DNA of 64,000 bases from Escherichia coli (GTDB taxonomy: Bacteria > Pseudomonadota > Gammaproteobacteria > Enterobacterales > Enterobacteriaceae). The notes beneath the pieces were generated by a model. The model searched no databases and was not told where the DNA came from. It was given only the letters and a program-made list of their open reading frames with translations. Of the stretch, positions 31,903-42,973 are shown piece by piece (the first letter of the stretch is position 1; each line of letters starts with the position of its first letter). Made by a program: the position numbers and the translations under genes. The stretch lies in the NCBI RefSeq assembly GCF_022846255.1, contig NZ_AP025682.1; one strand, 5' to 3'.

Positions 31903-32562
31903 ATGGACCTGATTTATTTCCTCATCGATTTTATCCTGCACATTGACGTGCATCTGGCAGAGCTGGTCGCGGAGTACGGCGTCTGGGTTTATGCCATTTT
32001 GTTCTTAATTTTGTTCTGTGAAACCGGTCTGGTGGTAACGCCGTTTTTACCGGGTGATTCATTGCTGTTTGTTGCCGGAGCGTTGGCATCACTGGAGACC
32101 AACGATCTCAACGTCCATATGATGGTGGTGCTGATGCTGATCGCCGCGATTGTGGGTGACGCGGTCAATTACACTATCGGGCGGTTGTTCGGTGAAAAGT
32201 TATTCAGTAATCCCAATTCGAAAATTTTCCGTCGCAGTTATCTCGACAAAACCCATCAGTTTTATGAGAAACATGGCGGCAAAACGATTATTCTCGCCCG
32301 TTTTGTGCCGATCGTCAGAACGTTCGCCCCGTTTGTTGCGGGAATGGGCCACATGTCGTACCGTCATTTCGCCGCTTATAACGTGATTGGCGCACTGTTG
32401 TGGGTACTGCTTTTTACCTACGCAGGCTATTTCTTCGGCACGCTCCCCTTCATTCAGAGCAACCTTAAACTGATGATTGTTGGCATTATTTTTGTTTCAA
32501 TATTGCCAGGTGTTTTCGAATTTATTCGCCACAAACGCGCAGCGGCACGCGCCGCAAAATAA
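31903..32562 (+). CDS. dedA: DedA-family inner membrane protein
   Basis: 219-aa polytopic membrane protein. Confidence 0.9.
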
Positions 32563-34970: not shown

Positions 34971-35616
34971 GTTTCAGAATCGGTTAGTGGGCACGATCGT
35001 GCTGGTGGCGCTGGGGGTGATTGTACTTCCAGGGCTGCTGGACGGGCAGAAAAAACATTATCAGGATGAGTTCGCGGCTATCCCGCTGGTGCCGAAAGCG
35101 GGCGATCGCGATGAGCCTGATATGATGCCAGCCGCCACCCAGGCGTTGCCGACGCAGCCGCCGGAAGGCGCAGCGGAAGAGGTGCGGGCAGGTGATGCCG
35201 CAGCACCGTCGCTCGATCCGGCCACTATTGCAGCCAATAACACCGAGTTTGAACCGGAACCTGCACCGGTCGTCCCACCGAAGCCGGTGGAGCCGCTTAA
35301 GCCAAAGGTTGAAGCACCACCTGCGCCGAAGCCAGAACCGAAGCCGGTCGTGGAAGAAAAAGCAGCGCCAACGGGTAAAGCCTATGTTGTACAACTGGGG
35401 GCGCTGAAAAATGCCGATAAAGTGAATGAGATTGTCGGTAAGCTGCGCGGTGCCGGTTATCGGGTTTATACGTCGCCATCCACGCCAGTGCAGGGTAAAA
35501 TTACCCGTATTCTGGTTGGGCCAGATGCCTCGAAAGATAAGCTGAAAGGTTCGCTGGGTGAGCTCAAGCAACTTTCTGGCTTAAGTGGTGTGGTAATGGG
35601 CTATACACCGAATTAA
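34960..35616 (+). CDS. dedD: Cell division protein DedD (SPOR domain)
   Basis: ORF-track frame from TTG 34942; start trimmed to GTG 34960, overlapping the folC 3' end; N-terminal transmembrane helix, Pro/Lys/Glu-rich linker, C-terminal SPOR-like region. Confidence 0.85.
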   Translation: MASKFQNRLVGTIVLVALGVIVLPGLLDGQKKHYQDEFAAIPLVPKAGDRDEPDMMPAATQALPTQPPEGAAEEVRAGDAAAPSLDPATIAANNTEFEPEPAPVVPPKPVEPLKPKVEAPPAPKPEPKPVVEEKAAPTGKAYVVQLGALKNADKVNEIVGKLRGAGYRVYTSPSTPVQGKITRILVGPDASKDKLKGSLGELKQLSGLSGVVMGYTPN

Positions 35617-37997: not shown

Positions 37998-38022
37998 TCA
38001 GGGTGCCGGTCTGGCACCCTGA
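37998..38022 (+). other. Perfect 10-bp hairpin between purF and ubiX
   Basis: TCAGGGTGCC - GGTCT - GGCACCCTGA; no U-tract follows. Confidence 0.45.
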
Positions 38023-38082
38023 CTTGCAACTCCCGTCGAAATCCTGCAAAGTCTGCCTGCAAGTCTGACAGGGCAACTATTT

Positions 38083-38652
38083 ATGAAACGACTCATTGTA
38101 GGCATCAGCGGTGCCAGCGGCGCGATTTATGGCGTGCGCTTATTACAGGTTCTGCGCGATGTCGCAGATGTTGAAACGCATCTGGTGATGAGCCAGGCCG
38201 CGCGCCAGACCTTATCTCTTGAAACGGATTTTTCCCTGCGCGAAGTGCAGGCGTTAGCTGATGTGACGCACGATGCGCGCGATATTGCTGCCAGCATCTC
38301 TTCTGGTTCTTTCCAGACGCTGGGGATGGTGATTTTACCCTGTTCAATCAAAACCCTGTCCGGCATTGTCCATAGCTATACTGATGGCTTACTGACCCGT
38401 GCGGCAGATGTGGTGCTGAAAGAGCGTCGCCCGCTGGTGCTCTGCGTGCGTGAAACACCATTGCACTTAGGCCATCTGCGTTTAATGACCCAGGCGGCAG
38501 AAATTGGTGCGGTGATTATGCCTCCCGTTCCGGCGTTTTATCATCGCCCGCAATCCCTTGATGATGTGATAAATCAGACGGTTAATCGTGTTCTTGACCA
38601 GTTTGCGATAACCCTTCCTGAAGATCTCTTTGCCCGCTGGCAGGGCGCATAA
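38083..38652 (+). CDS. ubiX: Flavin prenyltransferase UbiX
   Basis: 189 aa, MKRLIVGISGASGAIYGVRLL... Confidence 0.9.
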   Translation: MKRLIVGISGASGAIYGVRLLQVLRDVADVETHLVMSQAARQTLSLETDFSLREVQALADVTHDARDIAASISSGSFQTLGMVILPCSIKTLSGIVHSYTDGLLTRAADVVLKERRPLVLCVRETPLHLGHLRLMTQAAEIGAVIMPPVPAFYHRPQSLDDVINQTVNRVLDQFAITLPEDLFARWQGA

Positions 38653-38833
38653 CTCCGCTGTTGCCCTGTTTCAGGGCAATTTTGCAACCGCGATCAAATC
38701 CTCGACATTTTGTTCCTTTCGATGAATCGAAACGCTGCGATTCAACCGCCATACCTGCTATCTTCAACTCTAGGACAATAATGCAACGTCTTATTAACAT
38801 ATTTAACGTTGAATGTTACTGTTGTCGTAAAGA

Positions 38834-38849
38834 TGGCATAAGACCTGCA
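38834..38849 (+). promoter_or_regulatory. Sigma54-type promoter (-24 GG / -12 GC) upstream of argT
   Basis: TGGCAT-N7-TGCA with exactly 10 nt between the GG and GC dinucleotides, about 70 bp upstream of the argT start; nitrogen (NtrC) control of argT is established. Confidence 0.5.
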
Positions 38850-38917
38850 TGAAAGAGCCTGCAAACACACAACACAATACACAACATAAAAAAGCCATTT
38901 TCACTTGAGGGTTATGT

Positions 38918-39700
38918 ATGAAGAAGTCGATTCTCGCTCTGTCTTTGTTAGTCGGTCTCTCCGCAGCGGCTTCCAGCTATGCGGCGCTACCGGAGACGGT
39001 ACGTATCGGAACCGATACCACCTATGCGCCGTTCTCATCGAAAGATGCCAAAGGTGACTTTGTTGGCTTTGATATCGATCTCGGTAACGAGATGTGCAAA
39101 CGGATGCAGGTGAAATGTACCTGGGTTGCCAGTGACTTTGACGCGCTGATCCCCTCACTAAAAGCGAAAAAAATCGACGCCATTATTTCGTCGCTCTCCA
39201 TTACCGATAAACGTCAGCAGGAGATTGCTTTCTCCGACAAGTTGTACGCCGCAGATTCTCGTTTGATTGCCGCCAAAGGTTCACCGATTCAGCCAACGCT
39301 GGATTCACTGAAAGGTAAACATGTGGGTGTGCTGCAGGGATCAACCCAGGAAGCATACGCTAACGAGACCTGGCGTAGCAAAGGCGTGGATGTGGTGGCC
39401 TATGCCAACCAGGATTTGGTTTATTCCGATCTGGCTGCAGGACGTCTGGATGCTGCGTTACAAGATGAAGTTGCTGCCAGTGAAGGATTCCTCAAGCAAC
39501 CTGCTGGTAAAGATTTCGCCTTTGCTGGCTCATCAGTGAAAGACAAAAAATACTTCGGTGACGGTACCGGTGTAGGGCTACGTAAAGATGATGCTGAACT
39601 GACGGCGGCGTTTAATAAGGCGCTTGGCGAGCTGCGTCAGGACGGTACCTACGACAAGATGGCGAAAAAGTATTTCGACTTTAATGTCTACGGTGACTGA
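38918..39700 (+). CDS. argT: Lysine/arginine/ornithine-binding periplasmic protein
   Basis: 260 aa with signal peptide; close paralogue of HisJ (shared ...[32 protein letters not shown]...). Confidence 0.9.
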
Positions 39701-39920
39701 TACGTCGCAGGGAAACTGTACCTGATGGAATGATCATCATGGTGCACGCCAGGTTTGTTGCACTATCGTGGTGCATTGAAATGCATACTTAAGCATTTTT
39801 AATGAAAAATAATACGTCTAACGGGGCGGGATATTTTGCCTTGATGGTCAATTTTATGGCACGATAAGTGTAACAAACCTGTAAATATTCCCTATAAAAA
39901 GACTGTCAGTTGAGGACATT

Positions 39921-40703
39921 ATGAAAAAACTGGTGCTATCGCTCTCTCTGGTTCTGGCCTTCTCCAGCGCAACTGCGGCGTTTGCTGCGATTCCGCAAAA
40001 CATCCGCATCGGTACCGATCCGACCTATGCGCCATTTGAATCAAAAAATTCACAAGGCGAACTGGTTGGCTTCGATATCGATCTGGCGAAGGAGTTGTGC
40101 AAACGCATCAATACGCAATGTACGTTTGTCGAAAACCCACTGGATGCGTTAATCCCGTCCTTAAAAGCGAAGAAGATTGACGCCATCATGTCATCGCTTT
40201 CCATTACGGAAAAACGTCAGCAAGAAATTGCCTTCACCGACAAACTGTACGCTGCCGATTCTCGTCTGGTGGTGGCGAAAAATTCCGACATTCAGCCGAC
40301 AGTCGAGTCGCTGAAAGGCAAACGGGTAGGCGTATTGCAGGGCACCACCCAGGAGACGTTCGGTAACGAACATTGGGCACCAAAAGGCATTGAAATCGTT
40401 TCTTATCAGGGGCAGGACAACATTTATTCTGACCTGACTGCCGGACGTATTGATGCCGCGTTCCAGGATGAGGTCGCTGCCAGCGAAGGTTTCCTCAAAC
40501 AACCCGTCGGTAAAGATTACAAATTCGGTGGTCCGTCTGTTAAAGATGAAAAACTGTTTGGCGTAGGGACCGGCATGGGCCTGCGTAAAGAAGATAACGA
40601 ACTGCGCGAGGCACTGAACAAAGCCTTTGCCGAAATGCGCGCTGACGGTACTTACGAGAAATTAGCGAAAAAGTACTTCGATTTTGATGTTTATGGTGGT
40701 TAA
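39921..40703 (+). CDS. hisJ: Histidine-binding periplasmic protein
   Basis: 260 aa with signal peptide; type II periplasmic binding fold. Confidence 0.9.
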
Positions 40704-40792
40704 TCGCCATCGGTGAAAGAAAGTCCGCTCCCTTCGGGTAACCGGAGGGAGACAAGAGGCGGTAATTCACCACACACGACAGGACAGGCAGC

Positions 40793-41479
40793 ATGTTGTA
40801 TGGGTTTTCAGGTGTTATTTTACAGGGTGCGCTCGTCACGCTGGAGCTGGCTATCAGCTCTGTAGTGCTCGCTGTAATCATCGGTTTAATTGGCGCTGGC
40901 GGTAAGCTCTCGCAAAATCGGCTTTCGGGCCTTATTTTCGAAGGGTACACCACGCTGATTCGAGGCGTGCCGGACTTGGTGTTGATGCTGCTAATTTTCT
41001 ACGGTTTGCAGATTGCACTAAACACGGTGACGGAGGCGATGGGCGTCGGGCAGATTGATATTGATCCGATGGTCGCAGGTATTATCACTCTCGGTTTTAT
41101 CTACGGTGCTTACTTTACCGAAACGTTCCGTGGCGCGTTTATGGCTGTGCCGAAAGGGCATATAGAGGCGGCGACGGCGTTCGGTTTTACTCGTGGGCAA
41201 GTGTTTCGGCGGATTATGTTTCCGGCGATGATGCGTTACGCTCTGCCAGGCATTGGCAACAACTGGCAGGTGATTCTCAAATCTACCGCTTTGGTTTCGT
41301 TACTCGGCCTGGAAGATGTGGTCAAAGCCACGCAGCTGGCAGGCAAAAGTACCTGGGAACCGTTCTATTTCGCTATCGTCTGCGGCGTGATTTACCTGGT
41401 TTTCACCACCGTTTCCAATGGTGTGCTGCTGTTCCTTGAGCGCCGCTACTCCGTGGGTGTGAAGAGGGCTGACTTGTGA
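40793..41479 (+). CDS. hisQ: Histidine/lysine/arginine/ornithine ABC transporter permease HisQ
   Basis: 228-aa polytopic permease. Confidence 0.9.
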   Translation: MLYGFSGVILQGALVTLELAISSVVLAVIIGLIGAGGKLSQNRLSGLIFEGYTTLIRGVPDLVLMLLIFYGLQIALNTVTEAMGVGQIDIDPMVAGIITLGFIYGAYFTETFRGAFMAVPKGHIEAATAFGFTRGQVFRRIMFPAMMRYALPGIGNNWQVILKSTALVSLLGLEDVVKATQLAGKSTWEPFYFAIVCGVIYLVFTTVSNGVLLFLERRYSVGVKRADL

Positions 41480-42192
41480 TCGAAATCTTACATGAATACT
41501 GGAAACCACTGCTGTGGACTGACGGTTATCGCTTTACTGGCGTGGCGATCACCCTGTGGCTGCTGATTTTGTCGGTAGTGATAGGCGGAGTTCTGGCGCT
41601 GTTTCTGGCGATTGGTCGCGTCTCAAGTAATAAATACATCCAGTTTCCAATCTGGTTATTTACCTATATTTTTCGCGGTACGCCGCTGTATGTTCAGTTG
41701 CTGGTGTTCTATTCCGGCATGTACACGCTGGAGATTGTTAAGGGAACCGAGTTCCTTAACGCCTTTTTTCGCAGTGGTCTGAACTGTACCGTGCTGGCGC
41801 TGACGCTTAACACCTGCGCTTACACTACCGAGATTTTTGCCGGGGCAATCCGTTCAGTGCCGCATGGGGAAATTGAAGCCGCCAGAGCCTATGGCTTCTC
41901 GACCTTTAAAATGTATCGCTGCATTATTTTGCCTTCTGCGCTGCGTATTGCGTTACCGGCATACAGCAACGAAGTGATCCTGATGCTGCACTCTACTGCG
42001 CTGGCATTTACTGCCACGGTGCCGGATCTGCTGAAAATTGCCCGCGATATTAACGCCGCCACGTATCAACCTTTTACCGCCTTCGGCATTGCCGCGGTGC
42101 TCTATTTAATCATCTCTTATGTCCTGATCAGCCTCTTTCGCAGAGCGGAAAAACGCTGGTTGCAGCATGTGAAACCTTCTTCAACGCACTGA
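41476..42192 (+). CDS. hisM: Histidine/lysine/arginine/ornithine ABC transporter permease HisM
   Basis: 238-aa permease; start overlaps the hisQ stop (GTGA). Confidence 0.9.
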
Positions 42193-42199
42193 GAATACG

Positions 42200-42973
42200 A
42201 TGTCCGAGAATAAATTAAACGTTATCGATTTGCACAAACGCTACGGCGAACACGAAGTGCTGAAAGGGGTTTCACTGCAAGCGAATGCCGGAGATGTAAT
42301 TAGCATCATCGGATCGTCGGGATCGGGGAAAAGTACCTTTCTGCGCTGCATTAACTTCCTCGAAAAACCGAGCGAAGGATCGATCGTGGTCAATGGCCAG
42401 ACGATCAATCTGGTGCGCGACAAAGATGGTCAACTCAAAGTCGCCGATAAAAATCAGCTGCGCTTACTGCGCACACGCCTGACGATGGTATTCCAGCACT
42501 TCAATCTCTGGAGCCATATGACGGTGCTGGAAAACGTCATGGAAGCGCCGATTCAGGTGTTGGGCCTGAGCAAGCAGGAAGCGCGCGAGCGGGCGGTGAA
42601 GTATCTGGCGAAAGTCGGGATAGACGAACGTGCGCAGGGGAAATATCCGGTGCATCTTTCCGGCGGTCAGCAACAGCGTGTTTCCATCGCAAGGGCGCTG
42701 GCAATGGAACCGGAAGTTTTACTGTTTGATGAACCTACCTCGGCGCTCGATCCTGAACTGGTAGGCGAAGTGTTGCGTATTATGCAGCAACTGGCAGAAG
42801 AGGGGAAAACCATGGTGGTGGTGACTCACGAAATGGGCTTTGCTCGCCATGTTTCTACTCACGTCATTTTTCTCCATCGGGGGAAAATAGAGGAAGAAGG
42901 CGCGCCGGAGCAGTTATTTGGCAACCCGCAAAGCCCTCGTCTGCAACAGTTCCTTAAGGGATCGCTGAAATAA
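42200..42973 (+). CDS. hisP: Histidine/lysine/arginine/ornithine ABC transporter ATP-binding protein HisP
   Basis: 257 aa with Walker [13 protein letters not shown] signature LSGGQQQRV and Walker [12 protein letters not shown]. Confidence 0.95.

Follow-up and report, generated by a model that had tools for sequence, protein, structure and literature searches.

The closest described counterparts of the region analysed here are argTp of Escherichia coli K-12 and the argT region of Salmonella Typhimurium, in which the 17-mer, the succession ubiX-argT-hisJQMP and the spacing between motif and start codon are all the same. In the literature, argT is sigma-54/NtrC dependent, hisJQMP is sigma-70/ArgR dependent, and HisQMP2 is common to both binding proteins, ArgT and HisJ (PMC6640053).

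Other systems resemble the locus in single respects. In the glnAp1/glnAp2 pair, NtrC sites, which for glnAp2 lie at about –108 and –140, overlap a sigma-70 promoter and activate a sigma-54 promoter further downstream. In glmY/glmZ of Salmonella, one and the same stretch of DNA forms the sigma-54 –24/–12 element and the sigma-70 –10 region (PMC3844500). The pspA and pspG promoters, TTGGCACGCAAATTGTA and TTGGCATGATTCTTGTA, have GT in the –12 position usually held by GC (TTGTA) in otherwise good motifs, and are both bound and confirmed (PMC4591121); their activator is PspF, not NtrC. At artJ/artPIQM, the paralogous binding proteins ArtJ and ArtI serve one ABC membrane complex and are regulated by ArgR like hisJ. 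Unlike at the argT-hisJ locus, sigma-70 alone serves the art promoters, and sigma-54/NtrC input is unreported for them (PMC6640053).

The window analysed here is a stretch of 64,000 nucleotides of the E. coli chromosome. It carries the gene order ubiX-argT-hisJ-hisQ-hisM-hisP, the well-known argT-hisJQMP amino-acid uptake locus, with the following coding sequences:

38083–38652, plus strand: ubiX, the upstream neighbour of argT (open reading frame list; RefSeq annotation of identical DNA; NCBIfam UbiX family, 310 bits)
38918–39700, plus strand: argT, 260 aa, periplasmic protein that binds lysine, arginine and ornithine (NCBIfam equivalog NF011586 at 583 bits, cut-off 440; RefSeq annotation)
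39921–40703, plus strand: hisJ, 260 aa, periplasmic protein that binds histidine (NCBIfam equivalog NF011965 at 599 bits, cut-off 459)
40793–42973, plus strand: hisQ (40793–41479), hisM (41476–42192) and hisP (42200–42973) (NCBIfam, 479 bits with a cut-off of 319, 465 with 306 and 576 with 466, respectively; annotation)

ArgT, HisJ and all three QMP components pass their specific NCBIfam family models, and the equivalog models and the RefSeq annotation of identical DNA agree with the gene assignments of a preliminary description of this DNA. The same description had called argT and hisJ 260-aa paralogues with long identical blocks, and our comparison gives 69% identity (BLASTP; 175/260 ungapped), with longest identical runs of 15 aa. 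By comparison, ArgT and HisJ reach only about 178–191 bits against the ArtI/ArtJ models. A single permease/ATPase set, hisQ, hisM and hisP, follows argT and hisJ in the cluster, and the products of the tandem paralogues would hand basic amino acids and histidine to the single HisQMP2 encoded downstream. An Rfam scan of 38000–41000 at E ≤ 1 returned no RNA families.

The argT core promoter

The argT core promoter lies in sense orientation within the 265-nt intergenic spacer between ubiX and argT:

38833–38849, plus strand: argT sigma-54 core promoter ATGGCATAAGACCTGCA (sequence; weight-matrix rank 2; K-12 site OS22; Salmonella site; 81/81 loci)

At 38834–38849 the motif reads TGGCAT-AAGACC-TGCA, i.e. 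TGGCAT-N6-TGCA. Its doublets, GG at 38835–38836 (–25/–24) and GC at 38847–38848 (–13/–12), are separated by exactly 10 nt, the canonical gap for sigma-54, and the GC and the motif end lie 70 and 68 nt, respectively, before the argT ATG at 38918. The preliminary description had likewise placed a motif with canonical GG/GC spacing about 70 bp upstream of argT, but had written it as TGGCAT-N7-TGCA, although six bases are counted between the two parts. A literal search for TGGCAY-N7-TGCA skips the argT site and matches at 38012 instead, where the GG–GC gap is 11 nt, and the notation is therefore corrected to N6. The sigma-54 consensus with two mismatches allowed does recover the argT motif.

The bare pattern is not above chance. 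With up to two mismatches, the sigma-54 consensus matched 35 times in the window against 45 matches expected, showing no enrichment. In a weight matrix derived from 41 sigma-54 sites of the ChIP-seq literature, argT omitted, the argT motif scored 14.9 bits, within the range of the training sites (8.4–21.7, median 16.1), and ranked second among about 128,000 window positions, and about 1.2 matches with this score or better are expected by chance per 64-kb window. The top-ranking match of the window sits inside dedA and goes unnamed in the ChIP-seq paper's main text.

Because the consensus counts are unenriched, the case for the argT promoter is built on placement, conservation and published occupancy, of which the first two raise the motif above chance. 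Such a match in sense orientation within the 265-nt spacer has a chance expectation of about 0.0025 (arithmetic from the matrix result). GG-N10-GC is present in all 81 Enterobacteriaceae argT upstream regions (syntenic loci from about 30 genera), and column identity is 0.99–1.00 in the –24/–12 elements as compared with 0.71 across the whole spacer. Relative to K-12, the window carries 10 substitutions in the ubiX-argT spacer, all of them outside the –24/–12 elements and none in the motif; the closest to these elements is at 38829, about –31. The argT promoter position in this strain is exactly that of K-12, and the promoter stretch was found in 5425 of 5426 complete E. coli genomes.

In the argT case, sequence, geometry, conservation and gene identities are established directly here, whereas sigma-54 occupancy, NtrC dependence and GcvB targeting come from literature on the identical K-12 or Salmonella sequence. 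The 17-mer is letter for letter the K-12 sigma-54 ChIP-seq site OS22 upstream of argT, the signal of which was 12-fold above threshold (PMC4591121). A sigma-54-bound site detected by ChIP-chip in Salmonella matches the argT motif, and Salmonella argT expression was 3.5-fold higher in the wild type than in an rpoN mutant (PMC3844500). In addition, an RpoN holoenzyme gSELEX peak is located in the ubiX-argT spacer, over the argT motif (PMC8743547). The published K-12 argTp fragment corresponds to 38662–38859 of the window (198 bp, ending at –1); on a plasmid in nitrogen-poor medium it gave the highest GFP of 12 sigma-54 promoters, and an argTp-lacZ fusion at the lac locus still follows GlnK/NtrC status. 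NtrC ChIP-seq at argT was weak, with a 5.4-fold peak added by eye (PMC4066584).

Taken together, 38833–38849 is very probably argTp, the NtrC-activated sigma-54 promoter of E. coli argT. The identity with OS22, the binding in Salmonella, the gSELEX peak and the NtrC/sigma-54 literature bear out the earlier claim of a sigma-54-type, nitrogen-controlled promoter, and the label "established biology" attached to it was apt, since sigma-54/NtrC control of argT is already documented. In the proposed mechanism, sigma-54 RNA polymerase would wait as a closed complex on the GG (–24) and GC (–12) of argTp, phosphorylated NtrC bound upstream would reach it through DNA looping under nitrogen limitation, and argT transcription would then begin at about 38860. 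The argT finding is correct but ordinary: promoter, nitrogen control, ArgT/HisJ paralogy and the common use of HisQMP2 all belong to the textbooks, and the argT result has little import beyond annotation. The promoter is already in use as a biotechnological part.

Upstream elements and leader of argT

Upstream of the core promoter, the ubiX-argT spacer contains three further elements:

38661–38679, plus strand: dyad TTGCCCTG-TTT-CAGGGCAA, right after the ubiX stop codon (pattern search, folding, comparison)
38679–38711, plus strand: strongly conserved block ATTTTGCAACCGCGATCAAATCCTCGACATTTT (20/33 columns at ≥95% in 81 Enterobacteriaceae spacers)
38782–38811, plus strand: A/T-rich conserved block TGCAACGTCTTATTAACATATTTAACGTTG, past the dyad and ahead of the core promoter (11/30 columns at ≥95%)

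The dyad core TGCCCTGTTTCAGGGCA (38662–38678) is NtrC-like, with 2 mismatches in 10, and its centre lies at about –189 from the predicted argT start. The dyad can also form a hairpin followed by TTTT, and the 51-nt stretch 38645–38695 that includes it has a predicted folding energy of –17.7 kcal/mol (z –2.7). Its position is constant at –189/–190 in most of the 81 loci, and the pair counts across loci include T:A to C:G exchanges. On these sequence features, the dyad could be a ubiX terminator or an NtrC-like site. The K-12 argTp fragment in the literature begins exactly at the dyad core, 38662.

In Escherichia this dyad is the only NtrC-like site upstream of argT, whereas other genera carry NtrC-like sites with 0–1 mismatch at –220 and –190, the former of which has been lost in Escherichia. 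For NtrC acting on Escherichia argTp, the sole recognisable upstream site is this weak dyad at about –189, with other genera adding a stronger one at about –220. A DNA-bending or IHF-type function is no more than a guess for the A/T-rich block, and no match to the IHF consensus was seen in 38782–38811 when checked by eye.

Downstream of the core promoter, the start and the leader element can be placed as follows:

38860, plus strand: predicted argT transcription start (rule of PMC4591121; end of the cloned fragment at 38859; GcvB complementarity)
38860–38887, plus strand: C/A-rich leader element TGCAAACACACAACACAATACACAACAT, GcvB (seed R1) target (duplex prediction; literature)

By the rule of PMC4591121, transcription starts 19 nt past the motif centre, here 58 nt from the argT start codon, and we infer a 58-nt leader from the start at 38860. 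The E. coli argT promoter was flagged "P", predicted, in EcoCyc 2015 (Table 1, PMC4591121), and for this reason the earlier call to confirm the exact argT start was fair. Complementarity to GcvB starts at 38860, the predicted +1, and the leader at 38860–38887 forms a predicted duplex with K-12 GcvB residues of about 63–92, with none of 300 mononucleotide shuffles as good. The literature counts argT among the R1 targets of the small RNA GcvB, with the bound stretch lying ahead of the ribosome site (PMC9299463, PMC2639303). GcvB would pair with the C/A-rich start of the leader, reducing ArgT synthesis when amino acids are plentiful.

The control region of hisJ

The argT-hisJ spacer combines an NtrC site, sigma-70 elements and a sigma-54-like motif:

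39741–39775, plus strand: NtrC enhancer, consisting of half-site GGTGCA (39741–39746) and full site TGCACTATCGTGGTGCA (39759–39775) (pattern; ChIP-seq peak)
39776–39803, plus strand: sigma-70 "constitutive promoter" TTGAAA-16-TTTAAT, adjoining the NtrC site (in-vitro prediction, PMC3946193; located by reading the sequence)
39780–39818, plus strand: candidate ArgR box pair, AATGCATACTTAAGCATT at 39780–39797 and AATGAAAAATAATACGTC at 39801–39818 (from spacing and literature)
39836–39865, plus strand: putative hisJ sigma-70 promoter with extended –10 (conserved layout in 75/81 loci; literature on sigma-70/ArgR)
39856–39872, plus strand: hisJ sigma-54-like motif ATGGCACGATAAGTGTA (12.7 bits, third in the window by weight matrix)

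The full NtrC site has 0 mismatches in the 10 specified bases of the dyad used as the criterion (TGCACC-N5-GGTGCA, 17 bp), and is the only perfect TGCAC-N7-GTGCA in the 64-kb window. An NtrC ChIP-seq peak at 2424941–2425021, 23.7-fold (PMC4066584), converts to 39710–39790 of the window and coincides with this site. In other genera, NtrC-like sites repeat upstream of hisJ at about –113, –135 and –165. As at glnA, the NtrC site abuts a predicted sigma-70 –35 (TTGAAA at 39776), a –24/–12-type motif follows about 116 nt further downstream, and the TTGAAA/TTTAAT hexamer pair has been assigned to the hisJ-argT spacer (PMC3946193). Unlike at glnA, NtrC repression of hisJ is not documented in the literature examined.

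The sigma-54-like motif reads TGGCAC-GATAAG-TGTA at 39857–39872, with GG at 39858–39859 and, as the preliminary description had stated, GT at 39870–39871 where GC is expected. GG-N10-GC is thus absent from the hisJ motif; an in-register GC occurs in 41 of the 81 orthologous regions, with every Escherichia locus lacking it. TGGCAC is invariant in all 81 loci, and conservation within the motif is lowest around –12. In Citrobacter and Franconibacter the motif is TGGCACGATAACTGCA, which scores 18.4 bits. As compared with TTGTA of pspA and pspG, hisJ has GTGTA and lacks the T at –15; as compared with glnAp2, the Escherichia motif has GT at –12 and lacks published sigma-54 occupancy in the sources covered. 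In the K-12 ChIP-seq paper, the text and those supplementary tables that were covered list no sigma-54 site near hisJ (PMC4591121), no peak in the argT-hisJ spacer is found among the gSELEX table rows examined (PMC8743547), and the main text of the Salmonella sigma-54 study does not mention hisJ (PMC3844500).

The sigma-70 layout comprises TTGCCT (39836–39841), an 18-nt spacer ending in TGG (39857–39859), within the accepted length of 17 ± 1 nt, and the –10 CACGAT (39860–39865). TTGCCT matches the –35 consensus at 4/6 positions, while CACGAT retains A2, A5 and T6, and in 75 of 81 loci TTGCC[T/A/C] or TTGCTT stands exactly 18 nt ahead of a TGG-preceded CACGAT or CACATT. ArgR binds hisJ 17 bp upstream of the –35 (PMC6640053), and the candidate ArgR boxes, in a 21-nt register, end 17 nt before TTGCCT, as that study reports. 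Conservation in 39782–39797 reaches ≥95% in 10 of 16 columns. A search with the ArgR-box consensus gave weak matches at chance level, and the box coordinates are therefore given as candidates placed by spacing and literature. A strict sigma-70 scan of 38550–40050 returned no promoter, omitting the hisJ layout because its hexamers are weak; a terminator scan returned a single weak candidate, at 39815–39828.

The layout TTGCCT-N15-TGG-CACGAT, with its putative hexamers, fits the published sigma-70/ArgR promoter of hisJQMP. The motif whose –12 element had been called degenerate does carry the GT, but in view of the better-conserved sigma-70 layout that it overlaps it is better read as a sigma-70 extended –10. 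Our comparison suggests that the sigma-54-like motif is mostly the extended –10 of this sigma-70 promoter, which may lie on top of an older, ancestral sigma-54 promoter. A common regulatory origin of the argT and hisJ upstream regions, as expected if the duplication had included them, was considered and rejected, as local alignments were no better than shuffles in most species and the two regions have only short motifs in common.

Rival accounts of the two promoters

For argT, a functionless chance match would accord with the unenriched consensus counts and with the 1.2 equal-score matches expected per window, but it is at odds with the correct placement and orientation of the motif, its invariance in 81/81 loci and the sigma-54 binding published in two species; given conservation and published occupancy, this account is effectively refuted. 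An account in which the motif holds sigma-54 polymerase with little transcription, argT being driven mainly by a so far overlooked spacer promoter of the sigma-70 type, draws on the observation that many sigma-54 binding sites may never yield productive transcription (PMC4591121), and on the conserved block 38679–38711, which includes TTGCAA-N18-CATTTT, a weak sigma-70-like pair read by eye. However, the strict sigma-70 scan was empty here, argT depends on rpoN in Salmonella and responds to NtrC status in E. coli, and nitrogen-poor medium elicits high activity from the 198-bp fragment that ends at –1, all of which render a sigma-70-driven argT very unlikely. The best NtrC site of the Escherichia locus is found upstream of hisJ, the sigma-54-type motif of which has lost its –12 GC, while the strongly nitrogen-induced argT has only a weak NtrC-like dyad upstream. 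One reading of this mismatch is that the hisJ-proximal site 39759–39775 is the main enhancer of argTp in Escherichia, looping from about 900 bp downstream. NtrC sites are able to act from afar and from downstream; this site is the only strong one of the locus, its ChIP enrichment exceeds that at argT (23.7-fold versus 5.4-fold), and Escherichia lacks the –220 site of other genera. Since the 198-bp upstream fragment suffices for strong activity on a plasmid, the reading is down-weighted; furthermore, the argTp fusion moved to the lac locus keeps its response to Ntr status, and genera with strong NtrC sites upstream of argT also conserve NtrC sites upstream of hisJ. We regard this pairing as improbable. 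The preferred account of argT remains an NtrC-activated sigma-54 promoter, probably served from upstream.

For hisJ, it is conceivable, though doubtful, that the motif at 39856–39872 is a working, weak sigma-54 promoter activated by NtrC from about 116 nt upstream and overlapping the sigma-70 promoter. Its 12.7 bits fall inside the range of bound sites, the confirmed pspA and pspG promoters share the GT at –12, a perfect NtrC site with a strong NtrC ChIP peak lies at a suitable distance, the motifs of Citrobacter, Franconibacter and Pseudocitrobacter are near-consensus (17.6–18.4 bits), and an in-register GC in 41/81 loci is far above the chance expectation of 1/16. This evidence is countered by the missing sigma-54 site in the portions of the K-12, gSELEX and Salmonella sources described above, by the assignment of hisJQMP to sigma-70 and by the poor conservation of the –12 region; moreover, the invariant TGGCAC is explained equally well or better as a TG plus –10 CACGAT at a fixed 18 nt from TTGCCT. 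A related reading, to which we give a similarly low weight, is that TGGCAC has a double role, as part of a sigma-70 extended –10 and of an ancestral promoter of the NtrC/sigma-54 type. The –12 GC of the latter persists in about half of the Enterobacteriaceae lineages but is gone from Escherichia, where the perfect NtrC site, strongly occupied in vivo, is retained and would still be functional. In this regard, the dual use documented for glmY/glmZ is at hisJ suggested by sequence and conservation, and NtrC-site quality upstream of hisJ did not track with GC at –12 (Spearman –0.14, p 0.2). If dual use is true, the hisJ NtrC site could activate a weak GT promoter, repress the adjoining sigma-70 promoter or help argTp at long range. 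Knowing which promoter this NtrC site serves would sharpen the picture of nitrogen control at argT-hisJ and offer a small case study of sigma-54 promoter decay or overlay by sigma-70 promoters.

The argT promoter and its conservation

The 1.35-kb stretch around the argT motif is found in 5425 of 5426 complete E. coli genomes, with 100% identity to several complete chromosomes. An identical copy annotated in RefSeq has the order dedA-accD-folC-dedD-cvpA-purF-ubiX-argT-hisJ-hisQ-hisM-hisP-rpnB, and all six proteins from UbiX to HisP (UbiX/ArgT/HisJ/HisQ/HisM/HisP) score above the curated cut-offs of their own specific NCBIfam models.

Genes from ubiX to hisP (window coordinates)
38083-38652, ubiX
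38918-39700, argT
39921-40703, hisJ
40793-41479, hisQ
41476-42192, hisM
42200-42973, hisP

The sigma-54 motif ahead of argT reads aTGGCATAAGACCTGCAtg (38833-38851). As the preliminary description stated, GG (38835-38836) and GC (38847-38848) show the canonical spacing, with 10 nt between them; the distance from GC to the ATG is 70 nt. The TGGCAT-N7-TGCA given there is correct in its two blocks but not in its spacing, which is six bases; the literal N7 pattern misses the motif, and the sigma-54 consensus with two mismatches recovers it. The consensus with at most two mismatches gives 35 matches in the window versus 45 expected from shuffles. On a weight matrix built from 41 intergenic ChIP-seq sites of PMC4591121, argT excluded, the motif scores 14.9 bits and ranks second of ~128,000 positions, with ~1.2 matches of this score expected per window. 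By itself, the argT motif is not above chance; it is convincing because it is conserved and sense-oriented in the 265-nt ubiX-argT spacer, where ~0.0025 such matches are expected by arithmetic from the weight-matrix rate.

The top match in the window, TTGGCATTATTTTTGTT (32480-32496, plus strand; 15.2 bits), lies inside the dedA 3' end and goes unmentioned in the main text of the K-12 sigma-54 ChIP-seq paper (PMC4591121), which illustrates the limits of motif scoring; it probably matches by chance and makes a useful negative control. In the purF-ubiX spacer, TGGCACCCTGACTTGCA (38012-38028, plus strand) resembles a strong sigma-54 motif, with a GG-GC gap of 11 nt, one too many; in the correct register its weight-matrix score falls below zero.

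One scan of species-representative genomes yielded 80 loci from ~30 Enterobacteriaceae genera, all with ubiX-argT-hisJ-hisQ synteny. TGGCA[T/C]-N6-TGC[A/T] occurs 50-89 nt before the argT ATG in 81 of 81 sequences, window included, and GG-N10-GC is therefore likewise present in 81/81. Column identity reaches 0.99 in TGGCAT and 1.00 in TGCA; the six intervening bases stand at 0.87 and the spacer overall at 0.71. Conservation over ~30 genera is also very strong in two spacer blocks, ATTTTGCAACCGCGATCAAATCCTCGACATTTT (38679-38711) and TGCAACGTCTTATTAACATATTTAACGTTG (38782-38811).

The nitrogen-controlled promoter proposed in the preliminary description is the known argTp. In E. coli K-12, ATGGCATAAGACCTGCA is the sigma-54 ChIP-seq site OS22, with a start predicted 19 nt past the motif centre, 58 nt ahead of argT (PMC4591121), corresponding to window 38860; the promoter carried the EcoCyc flag 'predicted' at the time of that paper. 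In Salmonella the same 18-mer is bound and argT expression is 3.5-fold higher in the wild type than in an rpoN mutant (PMC3844500), and an RpoN holoenzyme gSELEX peak is listed for the ubiX-argT spacer (PMC8743547). A review of arginine transport gives argT a sigma-54 promoter activated by NtrC (PMC6640053). The K-12 'argTp' clone, defined by the genomic primer parts TGCCCTGTTTCAGGGCAATT and the complement of AAGACCTGCATGAAAGAGCC (PMC7045595), equals window 38662-38859 and gave the strongest expression among 12 sigma-54 promoters tested (PMC7045595). Placed at the lac locus, an argTp-lacZ fusion tracks GlnK/NtrC status. The ubiX-argT spacer differs from K-12 at 10 positions, none in the motif and the nearest at 38829, so the promoter position here can be taken as that of K-12.

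Six of these 10 differences fall within 38715-38724, a stretch not conserved between genera; a 7-bp inverted repeat (TTTCGAT-GA-ATCGAAA) present there in the window is absent from K-12. Ahead of cvpA-purF-ubiX, at window ~35659 in the dedD-cvpA spacer, RpoN gSELEX gave a weak peak (31-32%; PMC8743547); the weight matrix found no good motif near it, the best reaching at most 9.5 bits at 35355-35371 on the minus strand.

Everything proposed beforehand is already established. Once its spacing is corrected to N6 the observation is confirmed, and its interpretation is supported. The comparison adds the family-wide invariance of argTp, loss of a -220 NtrC site in Escherichia and a dual reading of TGGCAC ahead of hisJ.

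NtrC-like sites and the argT leader

In most other genera two NtrC-like sites occupy fixed positions, ~-220 and ~-190 from the argT start, whereas Escherichia has only TGCCCTGTTTCAGGGCA (38662-38678; two mismatches; centre ~-189). The -220 site, often with 0-1 mismatch in Enterobacter, Klebsiella, Trabulsiella and Pseudocitrobacter, and present only in degenerate versions in Salmonella and most Citrobacter, matches the NtrC consensus well in most genera and directly follows the ubiX stop codon (for example TGCACCTGCAGGGTGCA in Enterobacter cloacae; window 38653-38661 compared with the orthologous loci L027, L035, L046 and others). It is missing in Escherichia, where the spacer is ~23 nt shorter.

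The -189 dyad may be an NtrC site, a terminator or both. Directly 3' of the ubiX stop codon, it is predicted to form an 8-9-bp hairpin followed by TTTT (51 nt, 38645-38695: -17.7 kcal/mol, z -2.7), and in some lineages its outer pair changes from T:A to C:G, which keeps the hairpin and moves the sequence further from the NtrC consensus. The published promoter fragment begins exactly at the dyad and suffices for activity, which argues that the dyad matters.

The argT leader starts with TGCAAACACACAACACAATACACAACAT (38860-38887), which is predicted to pair with the G/U-rich R1 region of the K-12 small RNA GcvB (residues ~63-92). Because this target of a regulatory RNA begins at the predicted +1, it lends indirect support to a start at 38860. 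In the pig-farm isolate E. coli NT1N34 (NZ_CP075465.1; locus L084, 2477-2550, corresponding to window 38857-38893), GCCTGCAAACACACAACACAATACACAACATAAAAAA is present as a perfect tandem duplication of 37 bp, so that this GcvB-target element occurs twice and the spacer measures 302 nt.

Two readings of the hisJ motif

The -12 degeneracy described for hisJ, GT in place of GC, stands. With 12.7 bits the motif ATGGCACGATAAGTGTA (39856-39872) ranks third in the window, where 4.5 matches of that score are expected. TGGCAC does not vary among the 81 sequences, and conservation within the motif is lowest in the -12 tetranucleotide: Citrobacter and Franconibacter have TGCA there, the motif reaching 18.4 bits, and the remaining loci have TGCT, TGCC, CGCA, GGCA, TGTA or other variants, with GC in register in 41 of 81.

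The invariance of TGGCAC is also explained by a sigma-70 layout of the extended -10 type: in 75 of 81 sequences a TGG-preceded CACGAT/CACATT follows TTGCC[T/A/C] or TTGCTT at a distance of exactly 18 nt.

Candidate sigma-70 layout ahead of hisJ (hexamer spacing in 75/81)
39836-39841, -35
39857-39858, TG of the extended -10
39860-39865, -10

The published hisJQMP promoter is of the sigma-70 type and repressed by ArgR (PMC6640053). If the conserved TGCATACTTAAGCA and a second stretch 21 nt further on (39780-39797 and 39801-39818), both weak matches, are the two ArgR boxes, they end 17 nt before the -35, the distance reported for hisJ (PMC6640053). No hisJ-proximal sigma-54 site appears in the text of the K-12 ChIP-seq paper or in those of its supplementary tables that were examined (PMC4591121), nor a peak among the gSELEX table rows examined (PMC8743547), and hisJ goes unnamed in the main text on Salmonella (PMC3844500). 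Pointing the other way, the confirmed promoters pspA and pspG likewise have GT at -12 (PMC4591121).

NtrC-like sites ahead of hisJ, which also speak for the sigma-54 side, recur in most genera at ~-113, -135 and -165 relative to the sigma-54-type start, with or without the -12 GC. The sole perfect match to TGCAC-N7-GTGCA in the 64 kb lies here, in the argT-hisJ spacer (39759-39775), and not ahead of argT. It falls, after coordinate conversion, under a 23.7-fold NtrC ChIP-seq peak assigned to hisJQMP; the argT peak is just 5.4-fold and was added by eye (PMC4066584). Immediately adjoining the perfect NtrC site is TTGAAA-16-TTTAAT (39776-39803), a sigma-70 prediction based on in vitro data (PMC3946193), and this abutment may be likened to glnAp1/glnAp2. 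In our reading, the E. coli hisJ motif is mainly a sigma-70 extended -10 region, which is probably superimposed on an ancestral NtrC/sigma-54 promoter that some genera keep intact and that has decayed in Escherichia; that the sigma-54 motif still fires in E. coli is unlikely.

The ArgT and HisJ paralogues

The paralogy claimed from long identical blocks holds, as ArgT and HisJ share 69% identity over 236 aa (BLASTP), with identical runs of up to 15 aa and 175 of 260 residues identical without gaps. They are given as 70% identical in PMC6640053, which also describes HisQMP2 as common to both. Both the paralogy and the shared transporter are classical. At the DNA level 539 of 783 positions are identical; the longest identical run is 11 nt, which gives no sign of recent gene conversion. 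Beyond short motifs, no homology was detected between the two upstream regions.

The hisJ-hisQ spacer (40712-40788) carries a strong hairpin (core CTCCCTTCGG/CCGGAGGGAG at 40728-40751; 100-nt fold, -33.2 kcal/mol, z -3.3), followed by the C/A-rich CACCACACACGACAGGACAGG (40768-40788) just before the hisQ ATG.
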